From the NCBI GenBank assembly GCA_963664305.2, contig CAXXLV010000002.1:1600001-1664000 (forward strand): DNA of 64,000 nucleotides. The letters run 5' to 3'. This DNA comes from an uncultured Aliarcobacter sp. (lineage in GTDB: Bacteria; Campylobacterota; Campylobacteria; Campylobacterales; Arcobacteraceae). The notes under the pieces are model-generated. The model had not been told where the DNA came from. It worked only from the letters and a program-made list of their open reading frames with translations, and made no database searches. The position numbers and the translations under genes are program-made. Below, in pieces: positions 40,935 to 48,655 of the stretch (position 1 is its first letter; each line of letters opens with the position of its first letter).

Positions 40935-43049
40935 TCAATTATCTTTCGTTTCATTTGATAAATATTCATACAAATACAAATATTGTCTTAACTCTTTTAG
41001 GCTTTCAAGTTTAATTCCCTCTTCTATCCAAGCTTTAATATTTGAAGGAATTTCAAGTGGTTTTAATAACTCCTCTTTCTTCTTTTTTGAAATTTTTTCA
41101 TGTTCTGCTAATACTGAAATATGACCCAGAATTGAAGTTAATCCTAAATCTCTAATTTGTGCAATTTCTTCTACACTTTTTCCTTCATTTAAAAGTTCAT
41201 AAGTTTCAAGATATGTTTTTGTGAGTTTCTTTAATGGCTCTTTATTTTGTAATTTTTCTTTGTATTCTTCTTTTATCTCTTTAGATAAATTTAAAAAATC
41301 TTCTCCATATTTTTCATACTTTACAAGACCAACACCATTTATATTTAACATATCATCTTTTGTTATTGGAAGTTTTAAAGCAAACTCTTTTAAAGTCTTA
41401 TCACCAAAAATAACATAAGCTGGAACTTCATGTTCTAATGCAATCTCTTTTCGTAAAGTTCTAAATCTTTCGTAAATCAACTCATCAAAACTCAGTTCTG
41501 TTTCTTCCTCTTGGATTTTTGAAGCTACACCTAATTTATCACTATCTATAAAAAGTTTCTCTTTTCCTTTTAATATTTCTAATCCTAAAGAGCTTATTTT
41601 CAAAGCTCGAAATTCCCCTAAATTTAAAGCTTCTATATCTATTAATTTATCAGCAATTGCTATCCATTCATTTTTACTTTTATCAATTCCTAGATTATAA
41701 ACACTTAATTTATCATGTTCTAACTCTAAAAGTTTTTGATTTTTTGAACCCCTTAAAATATCTATGATGTGATTTAGTCCAAATCTTTGTTCACTTCTAT
41801 AAATAGCACTTAAAAGTTTTTGAGCATCAACACTTACATCTACAAGTTCAACTTCACCTTTTGTACAGTTATCACATAGAGTTTTACAAGCTTCAATCTC
41901 ATCTTCAAAATAACCTGCAATCATTTTATGACGACAATTATTACTCACACAATACCTATACATAAATTCCAATTTATCAAGGGCAGTTTGTTTGTATTCA
42001 TCATCAATAGCTTCTTCGATTTGTATTTTTCTTTTTACCTCATCACTTTTTGAATAAAGCATATAAACATAAGACATTTCACCATCACGCCCTGCCCGAC
42101 CGATTTCTTGATAGTAATTTTCAAGGGTTTTAGGTAAACTTGTATGTATTACAAAACGAATATTTGATTTATCAATTCCCATTCCAAAAGCGATGGTTGC
42201 TACTACAATATCTATTTTTTCATATACAAAATCATTAAAAACTTCATTTTTTCTGTCACTACTAAGCCCTGCATGATAGGCTTTTGCACTATATCCATTT
42301 TCACTCAAAAACTCTGCTGTTGATTCTGCTTCTTTTCTTGTAAAAGTGTAGATGATTCCACATAAACCTTTGTGAGTTTTTAAGAAGTTTAGTATTTGAG
42401 TTTTTCCGTTTGCTATTCGTGGTTCTACTTTTATATCAAGATTATCTCTTACAGTTTTTGCTCTAAAATGTTTTGGATTTTGTAAATTCAAAGATGAAGC
42501 AATATCAGCTTCAACTTTTTTTGTAGCAGTTGCAGTAAATGCACAAATTGAAGTATTTGGGAAAAATCTTTTTAGTCTATCAAGATTTCTATACTCAGCT
42601 CTAAACTCATGTCCCCAAGCAGATACACAATGGGCTTCATCTATTACAAAATAGTTTATATTTATTCGCTGTAAAACTGCTACGAATTCATTTGAAGTAA
42701 ATCTTTCAGGTGCAACATAGATAAATTTTAACTCCCCATTTAAAAGCTTTAGAAGAGTAAAACTATTTTCATCATTTGAAGTTGCTGAACTAATCATATC
42801 TGCACTAATATTTAAATCATTCAGAGCTTTTATCTGGTCTTGCATAAGTGCAATAAGAGGAGAAATTACAACAGTAGTTCCTTCCATAAGAAGAGTTGGA
42901 AGTTGATAACAAAGTGATTTTCCTCCACCTGTTGGCAAAATTGTCAAAACATCTTGTTTTGCAAGAATTGTATCAACAACTTCTTCTTGGAAAGAACGAA
43001 AAGTATCGTGTCCGAAAATATCTTTTAGTATTTGGTATTTTTTATTCAT
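40935..43049 (-). CDS. recQ: ATP-dependent DNA helicase RecQ
   Basis: PTGGGKSLCYQLP, DEAHC, ATIAFGMGID, QEIGRAGRDG, Zn-binding Cys, RQC, HRDC; start 43049 (alternative 43064). Confidence 0.97.
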   Translation of the reverse strand: MNKKYQILKDIFGHDTFRSFQEEVVDTILAKQDVLTILPTGGGKSLCYQLPTLLMEGTTVVISPLIALMQDQIKALNDLNISADMISSATSNDENSFTLLKLLNGELKFIYVAPERFTSNEFVAVLQRININYFVIDEAHCVSAWGHEFRAEYRNLDRLKRFFPNTSICAFTATATKKVEADIASSLNLQNPKHFRAKTVRDNLDIKVEPRIANGKTQILNFLKTHKGLCGIIYTFTRKEAESTAEFLSENGYSAKAYHAGLSSDRKNEVFNDFVYEKIDIVVATIAFGMGIDKSNIRFVIHTSLPKTLENYYQEIGRAGRDGEMSYVYMLYSKSDEVKRKIQIEEAIDDEYKQTALDKLEFMYRYCVSNNCRHKMIAGYFEDEIEACKTLCDNCTKGEVELVDVSVDAQKLLSAIYRSEQRFGLNHIIDILRGSKNQKLLELEHDKLSVYNLGIDKSKNEWIAIADKLIDIEALNLGEFRALKISSLGLEILKGKEKLFIDSDKLGVASKIQEEETELSFDELIYERFRTLRKEIALEHEVPAYVIFGDKTLKEFALKLPITKDDMLNINGVGLVKYEKYGEDFLNLSKEIKEEYKEKLQNKEPLKKLTKTYLETYELLNEGKSVEEIAQIRDLGLTSILGHISVLAEHEKISKKKKEELLKPLEIPSNIKAWIEEGIKLESLKELRQYLYLYEYLSNETKDN

Positions 43050-43109
43050 TTTGGATGGTAACATAGTTTGAATAAGGGGTTAGTAAAAGGTATTTAGTTA
43101 TATTTATAA

Positions 43110-44447
43110 CTAATACATTTGAATATCCTTTTCCATTTCTTTAATACTTTTATAAATTAATTTATTAAATATATATTCAATTTCATTAGATTTGACATTT
43201 TTCAAATTAAAAATATCAATTAATATCTCTCTTTTTTCATCTTTTGTTAAATCTGAAAAATTTGGTATATATTTTGTATTTGTTCTATTTTTTAAAATCT
43301 CAAAATAAGTTCGAATAAATTTTTTAACTTCTTTTTTATCATATTCAATATTGAATTTTTTAAACATATTTAATATAAAAGTATCTAATCTAAATAAAAG
43401 AGTGGTGTCATTGATTTGAGAGAAAAAATATAACCAACCATATTTTTTACCTTCAAATTTACAACCAGTAATTTTTAAATTTAATTTCCAATATAAAAAA
43501 TTTATATTTTGTTCTTTTGAATGTTTATACTGTGTGAAAATATTTATTATTGATGTATGCAAGTTATCGATAGAAGATTTTCTAACTGATATTAAATTAT
43601 TACTATATGAATAACCTAGGAAATAAAAAGTATCACTTAAACTTCCTATCTCAGTTTTATCTTTACTTTTCCCTATTTCATGTATTTTTAAATCTAAATT
43701 ATTCATATCATTTTCTAACAATTTAAATACACTAAATGTATCTTGTTTATTACATAGAATTAATATATCATCAACATATCTAAAGTATTCATAGTTTATT
43801 TGGGAAGAATGTTTCTTGTCAAATTCTATAAAATAAATTGAAGCAAGTATATTTGATATTGATAGTCCTTGAGGTACACCTTTGTTATTAGAATATTTTT
43901 CAATATATCTATTACTTTTATTTACCGTTTCTTGTTTTATTGATTTGATTAATAAATCTGTAAATTGAATTTTTTTAGTTCTTTTATATAGAAATTTAAC
44001 TAATATTTCATGATTTATAGAGGGATAAAAATTTTCTATATCCGTTTTAATATAGCTATCAAATTTACCACTTTGAATACTTGTTTTTATTTTATTTATT
44101 TTTGAATGAATTAATTCATTTGTTAATTCCTCTTCAAATATCTCATTCAATGTATTAAAAATAATTTTTAGTACTATTTTATCTCTTATTGTAGGAATTG
44201 AAATTATTCTTGGAAATTTATTTTTACCTTTTGAAATTAATTTTTCTTTATAAAATGAAAAATTATATGTTTTATTCAAAATTTTCCTATTTATTAATTC
44301 AAACTCAGAATTTTGTTTTTTTTCATAACTTTTAATATTTATGCCATCAATTCCTATTGATGGCTTATTCTTAATAGTATCATCAAAAACTTTTTTTATA
44401 TTTTTTATTTTGATATTTTTATTAAATATCCTGAATGGATATTTCAT
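43110..44447 (-). CDS. Reverse transcriptase, defence-associated UG/Abi type (UG17/DRT10-like)
   Basis: GIDG (RT0), PRIISIPTIRDKI, TDIENFYPSINH, GVPQGLSISNILASIY, RYVDDILI, YFLGY; no retron VTG/NAxxH, no endonuclease; ATGA-coupled to a SLATT gene. Confidence 0.9.
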   Translation of the reverse strand: MKYPFRIFNKNIKIKNIKKVFDDTIKNKPSIGIDGINIKSYEKKQNSEFELINRKILNKTYNFSFYKEKLISKGKNKFPRIISIPTIRDKIVLKIIFNTLNEIFEEELTNELIHSKINKIKTSIQSGKFDSYIKTDIENFYPSINHEILVKFLYKRTKKIQFTDLLIKSIKQETVNKSNRYIEKYSNNKGVPQGLSISNILASIYFIEFDKKHSSQINYEYFRYVDDILILCNKQDTFSVFKLLENDMNNLDLKIHEIGKSKDKTEIGSLSDTFYFLGYSYSNNLISVRKSSIDNLHTSIINIFTQYKHSKEQNINFLYWKLNLKITGCKFEGKKYGWLYFFSQINDTTLLFRLDTFILNMFKKFNIEYDKKEVKKFIRTYFEILKNRTNTKYIPNFSDLTKDEKREILIDIFNLKNVKSNEIEYIFNKLIYKSIKEMEKDIQMY

Positions 44448-45007
44448 TGAAAAGATATACTTACAATTAAAATAATAACTGGAAGTATGACTAAAAAGAA
44501 AAGTGTAACAAAATCTCTAATTTTATACATCCATCTTTTTACACTTTTTTCAAATGTCCATTTTCCATTAATTTCTTCATACTTTTTTTGGTTTCTAACT
44601 TCATGCATTACTTGTAAATAATCATTTTCCGAATGATTTTCTGTTAAACTAATTATCATATTATATTGATTTTTCAAATCACTATAATCTTCTTTATTAT
44701 TTTCTTTTTTGAGAATATCATCATATAATTTTGCCATCAGTACATATGATGTTTGAAGTATCAAGGCTCTTTCTTTATAATTCATTGCAAAAATAAAAAT
44801 TGATACTATAACTATCAATATAGATAAAATTAATGTTAATATTTCAAAATTTATATTTTCACATTTAATATCAACAATAGTAATTGCAATTATAAAAAAA
44901 GAATAATATGCAATCAATATTTGAGAAATTAAATCATTTCTCTTAAATCTTTCAGAAGTATTAATTCTAGATTTTCTTGTTTTCCATACATTATCACTAA
45001 AAGCCAT
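44444..45007 (-). CDS. SLATT-domain membrane effector (SLATT_5-like)
   Basis: N-terminal WKTRKSRINTSERF helix, two TMs, helical region with ENHS, third C-terminal TM; adjacent to RT. Confidence 0.82.
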   Translation of the reverse strand: MAFSDNVWKTRKSRINTSERFKRNDLISQILIAYYSFFIIAITIVDIKCENINFEILTLILSILIVIVSIFIFAMNYKERALILQTSYVLMAKLYDDILKKENNKEDYSDLKNQYNMIISLTENHSENDYLQVMHEVRNQKKYEEINGKWTFEKSVKRWMYKIRDFVTLFFLVILPVIILIVSISFQ

Positions 45008-45031
45008 ATAAAGTCCCTATTAAAGTTAAGA

Positions 45032-45159
45032 GTAAAGTTCCCAAAAAATTAGTTTAAAATGTCTTAAAATAAGACCTATAAATAAAATGTAAACATTTAT
45101 TAATTAGTTATGTTTCAAAAGTGAAACCTATCTTTTTGTAGAAAGATAAGGAACTTTAC
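45032..45159 (-). ncRNA. RT-associated structured ncRNA (about 128 nt)
   Basis: Perfect 10-bp closing stem 45150-45159/45032-45041 enclosing four hairpins (45129-45148, 45112-45127, 45081-45101, 45061-45075); starts 7 nt after a TATAAT box. Confidence 0.8.
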
Positions 45160-45165
45160 ATGATT

Positions 45166-45171
45166 ATTATA
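45166..45171 (-). promoter_or_regulatory. Sigma70 -10 box for the ncRNA-SLATT-RT transcript
   Basis: TATAAT on the minus strand; predicted start 45161-45159 coincides with the 5' end of the closing stem. Confidence 0.7.
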
Positions 45172-45310
45172 TTTTAAAACTAATAATAATTAAATAAAAA
45201 TTATTTTTATATCTAAAGTTTTATTTAATCAATTTTTTAAATAAAGTGAAAATACTAATTTTATTATTTATGATATATATCGAGAATGCAAAAACACCCT
45301 CAATATAAAA

Positions 45311-45913
45311 TTATTGTCTTTGTTTCATTTGATGATTTAAGAACTCTTCTTTACTAATATTTCCATCTTTATTAGTATCTATATCTGAAAATGATGGTTG
45401 ATTATCAATATTTTTCATCATTCTTCCTTCAGATAGTTTTTCTTCCATTCTTTTCTCTCTAGCTTCTTCCATCTCTTTAGTACTAATCATTCCATCATGA
45501 TTCATGTCATAATTTTCAAAACTTGGCATATTAAAATGTTGTCCCATTCCTTGACCCATCATACCTTGCCCAAAGCCTTTGTTTCCTTGATTAAGTTGCA
45601 TTTGTTTATTTTGACCTTTTAATAACTCTATTTCAGTCAATTTTCCATCTTTATTTGTATCAAACATACTAAAATCTGGAGCATTATCTATATTTCTCAT
45701 AGGCATTCCTGCTTCTTGTTTTTGCTCCATTCTTTGTAGTCTAATATCATTGAACTCTTTTTCACTTACAAATCCATCTTTATTTGTATCATAAGTTGAG
45801 AATTCTATCGGACCTCGATTTGATATATCTTCTGCATTAACAGTGCTTATCATAATAGATAAAGAACTAGCAACAACTAAACCTAATTTAACTGTTCGTG
45901 ATAAATTTTTCAT
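45311..45913 (-). CDS. Secreted EF-hand protein with Met/Gly/Gln-rich linker
   Basis: Signal peptide; four loops DTNKDGFVSEKE, DTNKDGKLTEIE, DMNHDGMISTKE, DTNKDGNISKEE; start 45913 after AAGGA. Confidence 0.85.
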   Translation of the reverse strand: MKNLSRTVKLGLVVASSLSIMISTVNAEDISNRGPIEFSTYDTNKDGFVSEKEFNDIRLQRMEQKQEAGMPMRNIDNAPDFSMFDTNKDGKLTEIELLKGQNKQMQLNQGNKGFGQGMMGQGMGQHFNMPSFENYDMNHDGMISTKEMEEAREKRMEEKLSEGRMMKNIDNQPSFSDIDTNKDGNISKEEFLNHQMKQRQ

Positions 45914-45982
45914 TATCTCATCCTTTTTATTTAGATGATTCATTCTACTCTTTATTTAATATAATTACCATAACTTAATTTA

Positions 45983-47275
45983 TTATTTTAAAACGACTTT
46001 TACTTTATCTAAACTATTTGTGTTAGCAAAGTCATTTATAAGAGTTGCTAATTGTAAAACATCACTATTTTTCATTCTAATACAACCAGCTGATTCATTT
46101 GTACCAATTGTTTTTTCATTTAAAGTTCCATGTATTCTATATGTACTTTTTCCATCAACAATATGCGTAAGATTTATTTTAGCTGCACCCATATAGTTAT
46201 ATTTATCTCCAGGAGGTACAACAGAAGGAAGATTTATTCCTCTTTTTCTAAAACTTTTTATTGTATCAGCTGTTGGATACCAAACTGGGTTTAAAGAAAT
46301 TTGAGAGATTTTTCCAACACCAAAAGGTTTTTTTACATCATCTTTTCCAGTTGAAACTCTGTAAGTTTTTATCTCTTTTAAATGGTCATCTATTTGAGCT
46401 TTTACTGTCATATAATTTGTAACAGAATTTACTTCAATAATAAGTTGTTGATAATCTGAAATATTTGCTTCAATATCTTCTTCAACTTCTTTTAAAGGTG
46501 TAGGTTTAATTTCTTCTTTTTTAGGTATCTCTTTTTTGATTACTTTTGGTTTTTCATAACTTTTTGTGATTTTTTGAACTTTTTCTTTTTTTTCAAGTTG
46601 CTCATTCGCTCTATCAAATTCATCCATACTGATTTGTCTTAACTCTTCTTCGTATGAAGCAATTTTTTCATCATTTTCTTTTTCTTCTTTAGCACTCTCT
46701 TCTTTTGCTAAAGGTACAACCTCCTCTTTTATTTCTGGTTTTTCTTCCACATCTTCATCATCTACAAATCTTTTTCCCTCAGCAAATGGATAAGAACTAA
46801 CTAATTTAAACTCTTCTGTATTTGGAACAGCAGAAACCAAAGGAAACTCTTCTACTTTTTTTAAAGGAACAGTTACTTCATTTTCTTTTGGTATTACTGT
46901 TTCAACTATTTCTTGTTGAATTACTGAATCTTCTAAATCAATATAAACTTTTTTATTGTTCTCTTTTAATTTTAATACTTTTTCTTCTAACTCTTTTACA
47001 TAAGGTTTTTGTTGTTTTACATAAGTTGAAGAATTTTTTATAGTTTGATTAGCAATTTTTTTATCATCATAAACATTTAAATATGTAAAATATCTATTCT
47101 TATCTTTTACAATAAGTACTTCTGCATTCATACTATCTAGTATTCGTTTTTTACAAGTTAATGCATTTTCTAGATTTGAAGTTACACAAACTGAAATAGT
47201 ATATTTTTGCGTATTTGCAAAAACAAAAGAACTATTAAAAATAATAAATAATAAAGTTAAAATTTTTCTAATCAT
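45983..47275 (-). CDS. L,D-transpeptidase (YkuD family) with N-terminal SPOR-like domain and acidic linker
   Basis: Signal peptide; NPVWYP, RIHGT...ESAGCIRM catalytic motif. Confidence 0.88.
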   Translation of the reverse strand: MIRKILTLLFIIFNSSFVFANTQKYTISVCVTSNLENALTCKKRILDSMNAEVLIVKDKNRYFTYLNVYDDKKIANQTIKNSSTYVKQQKPYVKELEEKVLKLKENNKKVYIDLEDSVIQQEIVETVIPKENEVTVPLKKVEEFPLVSAVPNTEEFKLVSSYPFAEGKRFVDDEDVEEKPEIKEEVVPLAKEESAKEEKENDEKIASYEEELRQISMDEFDRANEQLEKKEKVQKITKSYEKPKVIKKEIPKKEEIKPTPLKEVEEDIEANISDYQQLIIEVNSVTNYMTVKAQIDDHLKEIKTYRVSTGKDDVKKPFGVGKISQISLNPVWYPTADTIKSFRKRGINLPSVVPPGDKYNYMGAAKINLTHIVDGKSTYRIHGTLNEKTIGTNESAGCIRMKNSDVLQLATLINDFANTNSLDKVKVVLK

Positions 47276-47428
47276 AATTATATTTTACTCTTTCTATCGA
47301 TTTGTTGGTATTTTACCTTTTAATTGTTGTAAATTTATTTATATTCTTATGATAAATATACTAAAATTTATCATTTAATATAATAACTATGTTAAACTTC
47401 CACTTTCAAAATAATTAACAATATAAGG

Positions 47429-48655
47429 ATGTTCATGTTCACTGATGATGATTTTATTGAACTTAACTCAAAATTTTACACAACTTGTAAACCTCAATCA
47501 AGAATTTTTACACTACTTACTGTACCTGCTGCTTTATTTGCAATTGTATTAGTATGTTATTTAGGATTTTTGCCTTTAAAAGTTGAAATTCACAGTGTTG
47601 TTTTAATCGGTTTTATATTTTTCATTTACCTATTCTTTGTAAAACACAATGCCTATTTTGTTTCTTGTAAATTTAAAACTCAATATTCAGAATTGGTTTT
47701 TTATCTAAAAGAATATATCAATAAAAACTTATTAACAATTGGTGAAACAACTAAAGCAAATGGAAGTGTTGATGACTTTTTAAAAGACTATACAAGTAAT
47801 ATAAGAAATACAAATTTCTCTTCAATCGCTTCTGGAATTTTCCCAACACTAGGAATTTTAGGAACATTTATCTCTATTGCATTTAGTATGCCTGATTTTA
47901 CTTCTGGAACAACAAGTGCTTTAGAATCTGAAATTTCAAAACTTTTAGGTGGAGTTGGAACTGCCTTTTATGTTTCAATTTATGGTATTTTCTTATCAAT
48001 TTGGTGGATATTCTTTGAAAAAATTGGAATGAGTAGATTTGACCATGATACTTTTGTAATCAATGAAAATACTAAACATTTTTTCTGGACAAAAGTTGAT
48101 ATTGAATCAATTCACATAAAAAGTAATTTAGATAACTTTACAAAAATGAGTGAAGTATTTAATCAATTAACATCAAGCAATATTTTAGAAAATATTAACT
48201 CTTCAATCGAACATAGATTTGAAGTTTTAGAAGAGATATTAAAAAAAGAGCTAATTTTATCTTCTAAAATTGCAGAAAATATTGATAATAATGAAAGATT
48301 ATCAATGATGTTAAAAGATATGACTTTAAATATGCAAACGACAATAAAAAGCTTTGAAAAACAAAAAGATTTATATGCTTTAAATGCAGAATTATTAAAT
48401 GCAAATATTGAAAAATTAAATTCTCACATGGGGAACTTAAGTTCAGATAATTTAAAAGCAATTTATACAAATATTGTAAAAAGTATCGAAACTATGAAAA
48501 GTGATATGGAAAAAATTGAATGGAAATTTAAACAAGGTCTTGAAGAGTATGATGAAAATATTACTTTTAGATTGAAAAACTCTCTTGAGTTAATAGATGA
48601 AGAGACTACAAAAATCATAAAAGATTTTAAAGAATTTAAAGAAATATCAAAGTAG
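47429..48655 (+). CDS. MotA/TolQ/ExbB-family (ZorA-like) membrane protein with long helical tail
   Basis: FPTLGILGTFISI and GTAFYVSIYGI TM motifs, about 200-aa helical C-terminus; start may be 47435. Confidence 0.8.
   Translation: MFMFTDDDFIELNSKFYTTCKPQSRIFTLLTVPAALFAIVLVCYLGFLPLKVEIHSVVLIGFIFFIYLFFVKHNAYFVSCKFKTQYSELVFYLKEYINKNLLTIGETTKANGSVDDFLKDYTSNIRNTNFSSIASGIFPTLGILGTFISIAFSMPDFTSGTTSALESEISKLLGGVGTAFYVSIYGIFLSIWWIFFEKIGMSRFDHDTFVINENTKHFFWTKVDIESIHIKSNLDNFTKMSEVFNQLTSSNILENINSSIEHRFEVLEEILKKELILSSKIAENIDNNERLSMMLKDMTLNMQTTIKSFEKQKDLYALNAELLNANIEKLNSHMGNLSSDNLKAIYTNIVKSIETMKSDMEKIEWKFKQGLEEYDENITFRLKNSLELIDEETTKIIKDFKEFKEISK

Follow-up and report, generated by a model that had tools for sequence, protein, structure and literature searches.

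A probable three-part DRT10 (UG17) system with a SLATT_5 partner and a structured RNA in an uncultured Aliarcobacter

Organization of the cassette

In a window of 64,000 nucleotides from an uncultured Aliarcobacter sp. (assembly GCA_963664305.2, contig CAXXLV010000002.1, positions 1,600,001 to 1,664,000), we examined a minus-strand cassette made up of a non-coding RNA (ncRNA), a SLATT_5 gene and a reverse transcriptase (RT) gene. The RT is of the UG17 class and carries YVDD, its partner is a SLATT_5 protein, and the 128-nt RNA has a conserved fold. Taken together, the block 45276-43089 (minus strand) is very probably an intact three-part DRT10 (UG17) anti-phage system, inserted at a variable junction between an EF-hand gene and recQ. 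Its main features are the following.

43089..45276, minus strand: whole inserted block, about 2188 bp (2.19 kb), with promoter region, ncRNA, SLATT gene and RT gene (alignment to the L181 empty site, G+C dip)
45166..45171, minus strand: predicted TATAAT -10 box, 6 nt ahead of the first base of the basal stem (sequence reading)
45032..45159, minus strand: DRT10-type ncRNA core, 128 nt, with basal stem, four hairpins, Loop A and Loop B (covariation)
44444..45007, minus strand: SLATT_5 membrane effector gene, 187 aa (Pfam, NCBIfam, PADLOC, hydropathy)
43110..44447, minus strand: UG17 (DRT10) RT gene, 445 aa, YVDD at 224-227, C-terminal Tyr445 (PADLOC RT_UG17, Pfam RVT_1, motifs)

The RT was matched by the PADLOC model RT_UG17 with 507.7 bits (E 6e-153, profile positions 5-427 of 429); the runner-up PADLOC models reached 134.5 bits (generic RT) and 103.1 bits (RT_UG4). 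The PADLOC Drt9 and Drt2 models gave 54-63 bits or no match against these 507.7 bits, and the NCBIfam models Drt3a and Drt2 stayed far under their cut-offs. Pfam RVT_1 matched at 4.2e-19. The motifs named in the original prediction for a 445-aa RT were all located: GIDG at 32-35, an intact YVDD at 224-227 and FLGY at 276-279, together with PQG at 192. R223, Y224, V225, D226 and D227 are invariant across 33 homologues. The host genome has one UG17 RT.

The SLATT assignment of the upstream open reading frame (ORF) was borne out by hidden Markov model searches in three libraries: Pfam PF18160 (SLATT_5, 2.3e-29), NCBIfam SLATT_5 (131.8 bits, 1.8e-38, cut-off 60) and PADLOC RTasSLATT (3.2e-44). Hydropathy places three hydrophobic segments in the 187-aa protein, at about 25-49, 49-79 and 160-187, as expected for the predicted protein with three transmembrane segments. 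The SLATT stop codon overlaps the RT start through a 4-nt ATGA at 44444-44447, the overlap described before, and both ORFs start with ATG.

DRT10 is already published in mechanistic detail, and the window holds a further member and not a new type of system. There are four mechanistic papers from 2025-2026, all on E. coli systems. DRT10 was described as ncRNA, SLATT and RT; its protein-primed synthesis of tandem repeats is guided by an A-B-A' pattern that lies in the template loop following a stable hairpin, and the C-terminal priming residue is S456 in Eco3 and Y444 in Eco1 (Tang et al. 2025, PMC12632851). The association of UG17 with SLATT and the link to SbcB (exonuclease I) come from Mestre et al. 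2022 (PMC9226505), according to whom SbcB makes UG17 tolerable in some E. coli strains. The published E. coli brake is degradation of the product by SbcB. Sanchez-Nieto et al. 2026 (10.64898/2026.04.29.721553) divide UG17 into subtypes A (Pseudomonadota, SLATT-RT), B (RT-SLATT) and C (Bacillota, SLATT-RT), with SLATT-then-RT as the predominant arrangement and with covariance models that work only inside their own subtype. The same study gives the template ACUUAUUACU, control by SbcB and a trigger resembling phage single-stranded DNA-binding protein (SSB). Ramirez et al. 2026 (10.64898/2026.06.29.735271) report a complex of two RTs and one pseudo-symmetric ncRNA with Loop A and Loop B, in which the SL5 and SL1 anchors serve as the reference points for measuring the template window. 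In their work Loop A of Eco3 (12 nt) is copied only into a short abortive product, swapped Loops A and B are functionally interchangeable, and an engineered shift of the accessory hairpin is tolerated. A similar structure was found for the E. coli H120 system (Chen et al. 2026, 10.64898/2026.10.08.757509). The statement in the original prediction that the SLATT-linked group UG17 is DRT10 agrees with what is stated in PMC12632851 and 10.64898/2026.04.29.721553.

The window RT ends in ...DIQMY. Among 85 RT ORFs the last residue is Ser in 64 and Tyr in 14 (78/85 with S or Y), and it is Tyr in the window RT and its entire clade. By comparison with the published proteins, Tyr445 would occupy the C-terminal priming position. 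At the columns aligned to Eco3 R371, K385 and Y388 the window RT has K364, R379 and F382, so that the basic/basic/aromatic character is retained and the identity of the residues is not.

The TATAAT box on the minus strand is present at 45171-45166 as claimed. By our reading of the sequences, a TAnAAT box with the same 6-nt spacing to the basal stem is found in 5/6 Campylobacterota loci; a generic sigma-70 promoter scan of the region gave 22 sites against 26.7 expected, which is not above chance. A terminator scan was likewise not above shuffles, and its single terminator-like site, 44343-44364 (plus strand), lies within the RT gene. Downstream, on the same strand as the RT gene and after a 45-bp gap, recQ (40935-43064, minus strand) encodes a RecQ with an additional C-terminal HTH_40 domain. 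Since no terminator-like site separates the RT gene from recQ, recQ may be co-transcribed with the cassette. In each of four wastewater metatranscriptome runs from one study, the same 17% of sampled words from 43000-45300 was present; five further possible RNA runs were listed, and the shares across runs were small (0.06-0.17).

Fold, conservation and template loop of the RNA

The structured non-coding segment, earlier given as about 128 nt, runs from 45159 to 45032 and is 128 nt long, with a gap of 24 nt to the SLATT gene. For the 168-nt upstream stretch the folding energy is -29.9 kcal/mol, shuffled sequences giving -19.5 +/- 3.2 (z = -3.3). The elements of the RNA, all on the minus strand, are listed here with the pairing statistics of their helices.

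45149..45159: basal stem, 5' strand (GUAAAGUUCCU), partner strand 45032-45042; helix 1, 11/11 pairs vary on both sides, 94.8% paired
45129..45148: hairpin 2, stacked straight on the basal stem; helix 2, 7/7 pairs vary on both sides, 96.5% paired
45112..45127: hairpin 3, 5' anchor of Loop A; helix 3, 6/7 pairs vary on both sides, 93.6% paired
45099..45111: Loop A (AUAACUAAUUAAU), 13 nt, conserved single-stranded motif
45085..45098: hairpin 4, 3' anchor of Loop A; helices 4 and 5, 5/5 pairs vary on both sides, 94% paired
45061..45075: hairpin 5; helix 6, 7/7 pairs vary on both sides, 90.5% paired
45043..45060: Loop B (AUUUUAAACUAAUUUUUU), 18 nt, predicted template loop, single-stranded in every fold

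Six Campylobacterota loci share this design: basal stem, hairpins 2 and 3, a 13-nt Loop A, hairpin 4, a linker, hairpin 5, a Loop B of 18-21 nt and the closing strand. A basal stem, four small hairpins and an unpaired loop behind the last of them agree with the RNA described by Tang et al. 2025 and with our fold of the Eco3-like E. coli locus L208; DRT10 RNAs have about 130-145 nt. RNAalifold on the six sequences gave 38 pairs, 22 of them with compensatory changes. The share of paired cells was 92.3%, compared with 38-56% when the partners were slid, and none of 500 shuffles was as high. Over 28 sequences from many phyla it was 93.9% against 37-50% for slid partners, and 36/37 pairs vary on both sides. 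The 28-sequence alignment was fitted to a covariance model built from the six Campylobacterota RNAs (R1) and is biased toward the structure; the six-sequence MAFFT alignment is free of that bias. Two bases that flank hairpin 5, G84 (45076) and A100 (45060) of the RNA, are invariant in the six-sequence alignment.

The window RNA itself scores 112.6 bits with R1. In Bacillota loci, full-length matches lie shortly ahead of SLATT in L028 (52.6 bits), L035 (47.7), L037 (45.8), L036 (41.4), L076, L084, L071, L082, L039 and L081. Such matches were also found in loci that carry the labels Treponemataceae, Anaerolineales, Chloracidobacterium and Bathyarchaeia. The match lies directly upstream of the RT in L067, an RT-then-SLATT locus, and in L003, L074 and L108. 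On Pseudomonadota loci R1 gave nothing significant. An Rfam scan of 42900-45500 at its E-value threshold gave four chance-level matches (E 1.8-6.8), none of them on the RNA. The RNA belongs to an ncRNA class without a curated Rfam family that is common to Campylobacterota, Bacillota and several other phyla.

The two loops differ in conservation. Loop A carries a CUAAUUAAYA-like motif with an internal UAAU-UAAU repeat, and this motif occurs in most of 26 distinct RNAs, from Campylobacterota to Bacillota and other phyla. It is likely the counterpart of Loop A of Eco3, by comparison with Ramirez et al. 2026. Its role may be contact with the RT or that of a second template. The sequence of Loop B varies among relatives; its position is that of Eco3 Loop B and its length is similar (18 vs 19 nt). 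Hairpin 5 would correspond to SL5 of Eco3, the template-boundary element, by comparison with Tang et al. 2025 and Ramirez et al. 2026.

Over the 26 distinct RNAs, repeats exceed expectation in both loops. In Loop B the mean longest A element is 3.81 against 3.32 +/- 0.16, a value reached by 1/1000 shuffles. In Loop A it is 3.27 against 2.77, reached by 0/1000, an excess explained by the conserved motif. Long perfect duplications are present in Loop B of L090 (GAUUACU-GAUUACU), L017 (UCUUA-UCUUA) and L081 (UAAUG-UAAUG). For the window, enumeration of Loop B yielded two main candidates on the minus strand and several registers that use the U-run.

45049..45056: candidate A-B-A' UAA-AC-UAA, 5-nt unit, complementary DNA (cDNA) repeat (GTTTA)n (enumeration and position relative to relatives)
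45060-45045: alternative A-B-A' AUUUU-AAACUA-AUUUU, 11-nt unit, predicted repeat (TAGTTTAAAAT)n (enumeration)

We lean slightly toward the 5-nt unit giving GTTTA as the template. It is favoured because its position matches UUAU-AC-UUAU in L010, UUAUU-AC-UUAUU in L009 and UUAU-UAC-UUAU in L011. Its linkers also resemble those of the relatives: 3 nt on the 5' side, counted from the invariant A behind hairpin 5 (2-3 nt in relatives), and 6 nt on the 3' side (5-6 nt in relatives). The 11-nt unit would begin flush with the hairpin and have a 3' linker of just 2 nt. The repeat predicted for L009 and L011, GTAATAA, is the published E3659 repeat AGTAATA in another register.

Relatives, insertion site and host

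Of 7992 proteins scored in a search with the RT, 1657 reached E 1e-20 or below. The top matches are 58-95% identical, with source names such as Sulfurimonas and Aliarcobacter butzleri, and the orthologues at 60-95% identity are all full length. Five Campylobacterota loci were among the best 80 of 418 confirmed loci in a scan of species-representative genomes. Among the best 80 of 276 confirmed metagenome loci, L089 was the only close relative (88% identity, partial RT, no upstream DNA). A phage collection gave no RT match at E 1e-30 or below, and plasmids gave 8 records, all at 41% identity or less and none from Campylobacterota. Gene order was read by tblastn with the window proteins: SLATT lies upstream of the RT in 110/169 records, two duplicated loci and truncated contigs being part of the tally, and the order is reversed in 14/169. 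The other 45/169 records had no SLATT by the window query or a contig that was too short.

For comparison, three E. coli loci (L207, L208 and L209) were fetched as anchors with the Morganella locus as probe. L207 is a SLATT-RT locus on a P4-like satellite with a 444-aa RT ending in ...DAGY. L208 is a SLATT-RT locus in a P2-like prophage, with a 456-aa RT that has R371, K385, Y388 and S456. In L209 the RT is followed, after 195 bp, by SLATT. The RNA of L208 reads G|UU|CAAU|GAUUC|CAAU|AUAU after its last hairpin, which is the published Eco3 geometry with the CAAU-GAUUC-CAAU template; since both geometry and residues match Eco3, L208 is a valid reference. We took L207 as a stand-in for the Eco1DRT10 type, which its RT length and C-terminus suggest. 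All three anchors lie in mobile elements, two on P4-like satellites (ogr/Delta, psu, integrase by tRNA-Arg) and one in a P2-like prophage by tail-fibre genes. Identity of the window RT to the RTs of L207, L208 and L209 is 40.0%, 37.1% and 35.4%; for the SLATT proteins it is 32.8%, 26.5% and 27.4%.

A tree of 88 rows (quick IQ-TREE, LG+G4, SH-aLRT support only, no outgroup; L007 left out for its short match) placed the window RT with other UG17-best RTs, in a 10-row Campylobacterota clade with support of 96-98. L208 fell in a large Pseudomonadota clade, L207 with Morganella and Serratia, and L209 alone on a long branch. The window RT is thus in neither clade holding the two E. coli SLATT-RT anchors, and R1 reaches Bacillota and not Pseudomonadota RNAs.

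Within the family, RT_UG17 was found in 8/184 genomes including the window's own, and in 1/43 other genomes of the genus, where it is a solo RT. Four family genomes (G117, G005, G168 and G125) carry a sister lineage of UG17-best RTs, at L003:204-1603, L004:1498-2706, L005:1438-2649 (minus strand) and L006:147-1334 (minus strand). These RTs score 361-402 bits, have about 400 aa and all end in Tyr. No SLATT lies beside them, and no SLATT_5 match was found in the whole of the four genomes, two of which are 100% complete. Upstream of each RT an RNA of the cassette's design is retained, and its last loop contains tandem patterns (for example CAAAG-CAAAG in L004). The sister lineage may represent a DRT10 derivative that has no need of a membrane effector.

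The boundaries of the block follow from the same-genus empty site L181, with which homology extends up to about 45277 on the EF-hand side and resumes from about 43088-43089 on the recQ side. G+C is 0.18-0.22 over the cassette, compared with 0.27-0.32 in recQ and 0.28 in the upstream genes. The ORF list of the block 43089..45276 contains no integrase gene, and no terminal repeats were found in 41000-48000. Orthologues of recQ (84-94% identity) are present in 23/43 other genomes of the genus. In L181, L185 and L191 the EF-hand gene ends 65-90 bp ahead of recQ (empty sites), and in L177, L183, L187 and L188 a YkuD gene abuts recQ.

In 14 longer junction flanks fetched from other species we found an AIPR protein (L194, PF10592 2.1e-33), AbiTii (L200, 7.9e-38), a toxin-antitoxin pair of NTP_transf_2/HepT type (L205), a weak HARE-HTH protein (L195, with the same ORF start in L202), a sigma-70-region-2 protein with an AraC/GyrI-like regulator (L193) and a 343-aa ORF (L196). 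These varied occupants indicate that the junction is a variable hotspot that takes up defence and accessory genes. The distribution of the cassette is defence-like because its presence is patchy (8/184 and 1/43), empty sites exist and other defence genes occupy the junction.

On the other side of the cassette, 47429-48655 (plus strand) encodes a 408-aa protein that has a long C-terminal tail and a weak match to the MotA/ExbB channel domain (1.5e-6). In many species of the genus a protein 75-95% identical to it stands beside the YkuD gene; in L203 a 342-aa ORF comes next. The MotA-like gene looks like part of the core genome, outside the variable block.

Proposed mechanism, alternatives and comparison with known systems

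By analogy with the published systems, the RNA would be transcribed from the TATAAT box at 45171-45166, with a start at about 45159, and two RT molecules would bind the pseudo-symmetric RNA. The RT would prime DNA synthesis on its own C-terminal Tyr445 and copy a short stretch of Loop B, halting at a fixed distance from hairpin 5. The nascent DNA would then slip back onto the matching downstream triplet, and repeated cycles would produce long tandem-repeat single-stranded DNA. With the template UAAAC and the alignment site UAA the product would be (GTTTA)n, the main alternative being the 11-nt unit that uses the U-run. Upon phage infection, repeat DNA would accumulate and activate SLATT, and the resulting membrane damage would stop the infected cell. 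The earlier suggestion that the cDNA product controls a membrane effector corresponds to the model proposed in the DRT10 papers, and would hold here by analogy.

Several observations weigh against an intact DRT10 system of the published kind, or against details of this scheme. On E. coli, Morganella, Serratia and Acinetobacter RNAs R1 hits the right place with 12-18 bits (E 0.06-1.3, filters off); being insignificant on these characterised RNAs, it leaves the link to them one of architecture and not of sequence or structure score. Of the three RNA-contact residues published as essential, two are replaced (R371 to K, Y388 to F), although both replacements are conservative and common (K in 24 and F in 14 of roughly 88 aligned RTs). 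A sequence search found no DRT10 chain in the PDB. An A-B-A' pattern is expected by chance in a lone AU-rich loop, where A has at least 3 nt in 99.8% and at least 5 nt in 26% of shuffles; single-loop statistics are therefore uninformative, and it is the position compared with relatives that supports the template assignment. The exonuclease I domain PF08411 (SbcB) was not found in the host genome G000, which is 99.96% complete, in a search that detected the E. coli control. Thus the published E. coli brake cannot apply unchanged, and a part of the control logic is missing.

A different reading of the template keeps DRT10 and takes the conserved Loop A (…CUAAUUAAU…, containing UAAU-UAAU), instead of Loop B, as the processive template. 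In its favour, Loop A hardly changes within the clade and is found again in other phyla, its internal repeats are longer than those of shuffled sequences (3.27 vs 2.77, 0/1000), and the two loops can functionally replace each other when swapped (10.64898/2026.06.29.735271). Against it, all published systems have the template in the poorly conserved Loop B, which is variable here too, and relatives found with R1 carry long perfect Loop B duplications (L090, L017, L081). Contacts with the RT would explain the conservation of Loop A equally well. We therefore consider a Loop A template unlikely and retain Loop B.

It is more improbable still that the cassette, intact in sequence, is not an active defence in its host, being either silent or a selfish toxin-like module. 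Such a state would fit a host without the SbcB brake that lets some E. coli strains tolerate UG17 (PMC9226505) and a block without a mobility gene to explain recent arrival. Both ORFs are nevertheless full length with all motifs present, the RT orthologues at 60-95% identity are all full length, and compensatory changes keep the RNA helices across the clade. The helices kept by compensatory change, together with the full-length ORFs, argue for selection on all three parts.

An origin of the RT from a group II intron or a group-II-like (G2L) element is hardly credible. GIDG and FLGY are present, and the nearest solved structures are group II intron-type RTs (E about 1e-12; the best PDB sequence match is a group II-type RT at 1.9e-12). 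The NCBIfam group II intron maturase model TIGR04416 scores 134.6 bits, far under its cut-off of 300, and the RT_UG17 score is nearly fourfold higher. As the original prediction had it, there is no intron RNA (no significant Rfam family in 42900-45500), and the RT lacks a maturase or endonuclease extension; a SLATT partner and a short upstream RNA are not intron features.

A retron, in which the RT would work with msr/msd RNA and an effector, can be dismissed with equal firmness: a structured upstream RNA, an RT and a membrane effector resemble some types, and homologues are named retron-type RT in some public sources, but the retron RT motifs NAxxH and VTG are absent from the RT by motif search, as had been noted, retron_St85_RT gives 46.5 bits where 235 are required, RT_UG17 far outscores even the best PADLOC retron-type RT models, and the RNA lacks long inverted repeats flanking an msd-like hairpin. 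With the retron and group II models far below their cut-offs, the RT is assigned to neither by these models, in agreement with the earlier claim. Nor does the region look like a diversity-generating retroelement, again as claimed: 41000-48000 holds no template/variable repeats and no long direct repeats of near identity, with matches there limited to AT-rich ones (64-89% identity) and the EF-hand gene's own repeats.

The preferred reading thus remains an intact DRT10 system. New here are a separate Campylobacterota RT clade, with 35-40% identity to the E. coli lineages, an RNA class common with Bacillota, the absence of SbcB from the host and a sister lineage that lacks SLATT. No characterised Campylobacterota example was known to the original prediction, and this holds within the literature searched. 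We found no paper joining SLATT, reverse transcriptase and Arcobacter. Campylobacter, Arcobacter and Sulfurimonas are absent from the main text of the DRT10 papers, whose supplementary lists of 484 and 307 homologues were outside the search and may include members. They are also absent from two supplement files of PMC12632851, the third being outside the search.

A natural DRT10 in a host without SbcB, the sole known host regulator, is of comparative value. With the same scaffold, a varied Loop B and a SLATT-less sister, it bears on which parts of the E. coli model are general: SbcB control, SLATT activation and geometric template definition. R1 in turn joins Campylobacterota, Bacillota and several other phyla in one ncRNA class not in Rfam. 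We tentatively raise the possibility, itself rather doubtful, that Campylobacterota hold a distinct DRT10 lineage outside A, B and C: Tyr-primed, with an accessory hairpin opposite to that of Eco3, a control and trigger other than SbcB, and an effector-free sister lineage. If so, accumulation of repeat DNA would be checked and triggered by another host or phage factor. The SLATT-less sister (RT and ncRNA in four family genomes) would then show repeat DNA acting without a membrane effector, as in DRT9.

Compared with the Eco1DRT10 type (L207), the window has the same SLATT-RT order with overlapping stop and start, an RT of 444-445 aa ending in Tyr (40.0% identity over 440 residues) and an upstream RNA with basal stem and hairpins. 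The two differ in RT clade, and R1 gives 14 bits on the L207 RNA. L207 rides a satellite with an integrase by a tRNA gene, whereas the window copy is a bare 2.19-kb insert without a mobility gene.

Eco3DRT10, seen by cryo-EM as a complex of two RTs and one ncRNA, shares the three-part layout and a pseudo-symmetric RNA with two loops (12/19 nt in Eco3, 13/18 nt in the window). It also shares a purine-purine position at the base of the last hairpin (G...G in Eco3, G...A in the window) and basic/basic/aromatic residues at the RNA-anchoring columns. The terminal residue is Ser in Eco3 and Tyr in the window, and RT identity is 37.1%. From the predicted folds, the accessory hairpin would lie on the Loop A side in the window, between the basal stem and hairpin 3, and between SL3 and SL5 in Eco3; judging from the L208 fold, hairpin 2 would occupy a site where the Eco3 RNA has just a 4-nt loop. 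The predicted linkers are 3 and 6 nt (2 and 4 nt in Eco3), and the predicted repeat is 5 nt (or 11 nt) compared with 9 nt.

The UG17-A system of Escherichia sp. E3659 likewise has three parts, with the ncRNA directly ahead of SLATT (gaps of 14-24 nt). It differs in its AGTAATA repeat, the window having another predicted unit, and in that the window host lacks the SbcB domain. Campylobacterota are not among the phyla named in the subtype scheme, which are Pseudomonadota, Bacteroidota and Bacillota (10.64898/2026.04.29.721553). By gene order the window cassette is not of subtype B. UG17-C from Bacillota shares the SLATT-then-RT order, R1 matches Bacillota RNAs at full length, and a 51-row group of the tree (support 96) unites the window RT clade with the Bacillota clades. 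The Campylobacterota RTs form a clade of their own, in a comparison made without the named UG17-C reference (Exiguobacterium sp. AT1b). Among the subtypes the window thus appears nearest to the C type, as compared without a named B or C reference.

Beyond UG17, DRT9 (UG28) and DRT2 (UG2) resemble the window as Class 2 UG systems with ncRNA-templated repetitive cDNA, and DRT9 also has a C-terminal priming residue. According to the published work, DRT2 and DRT9 need no SLATT effector, whereas the window cassette has one.

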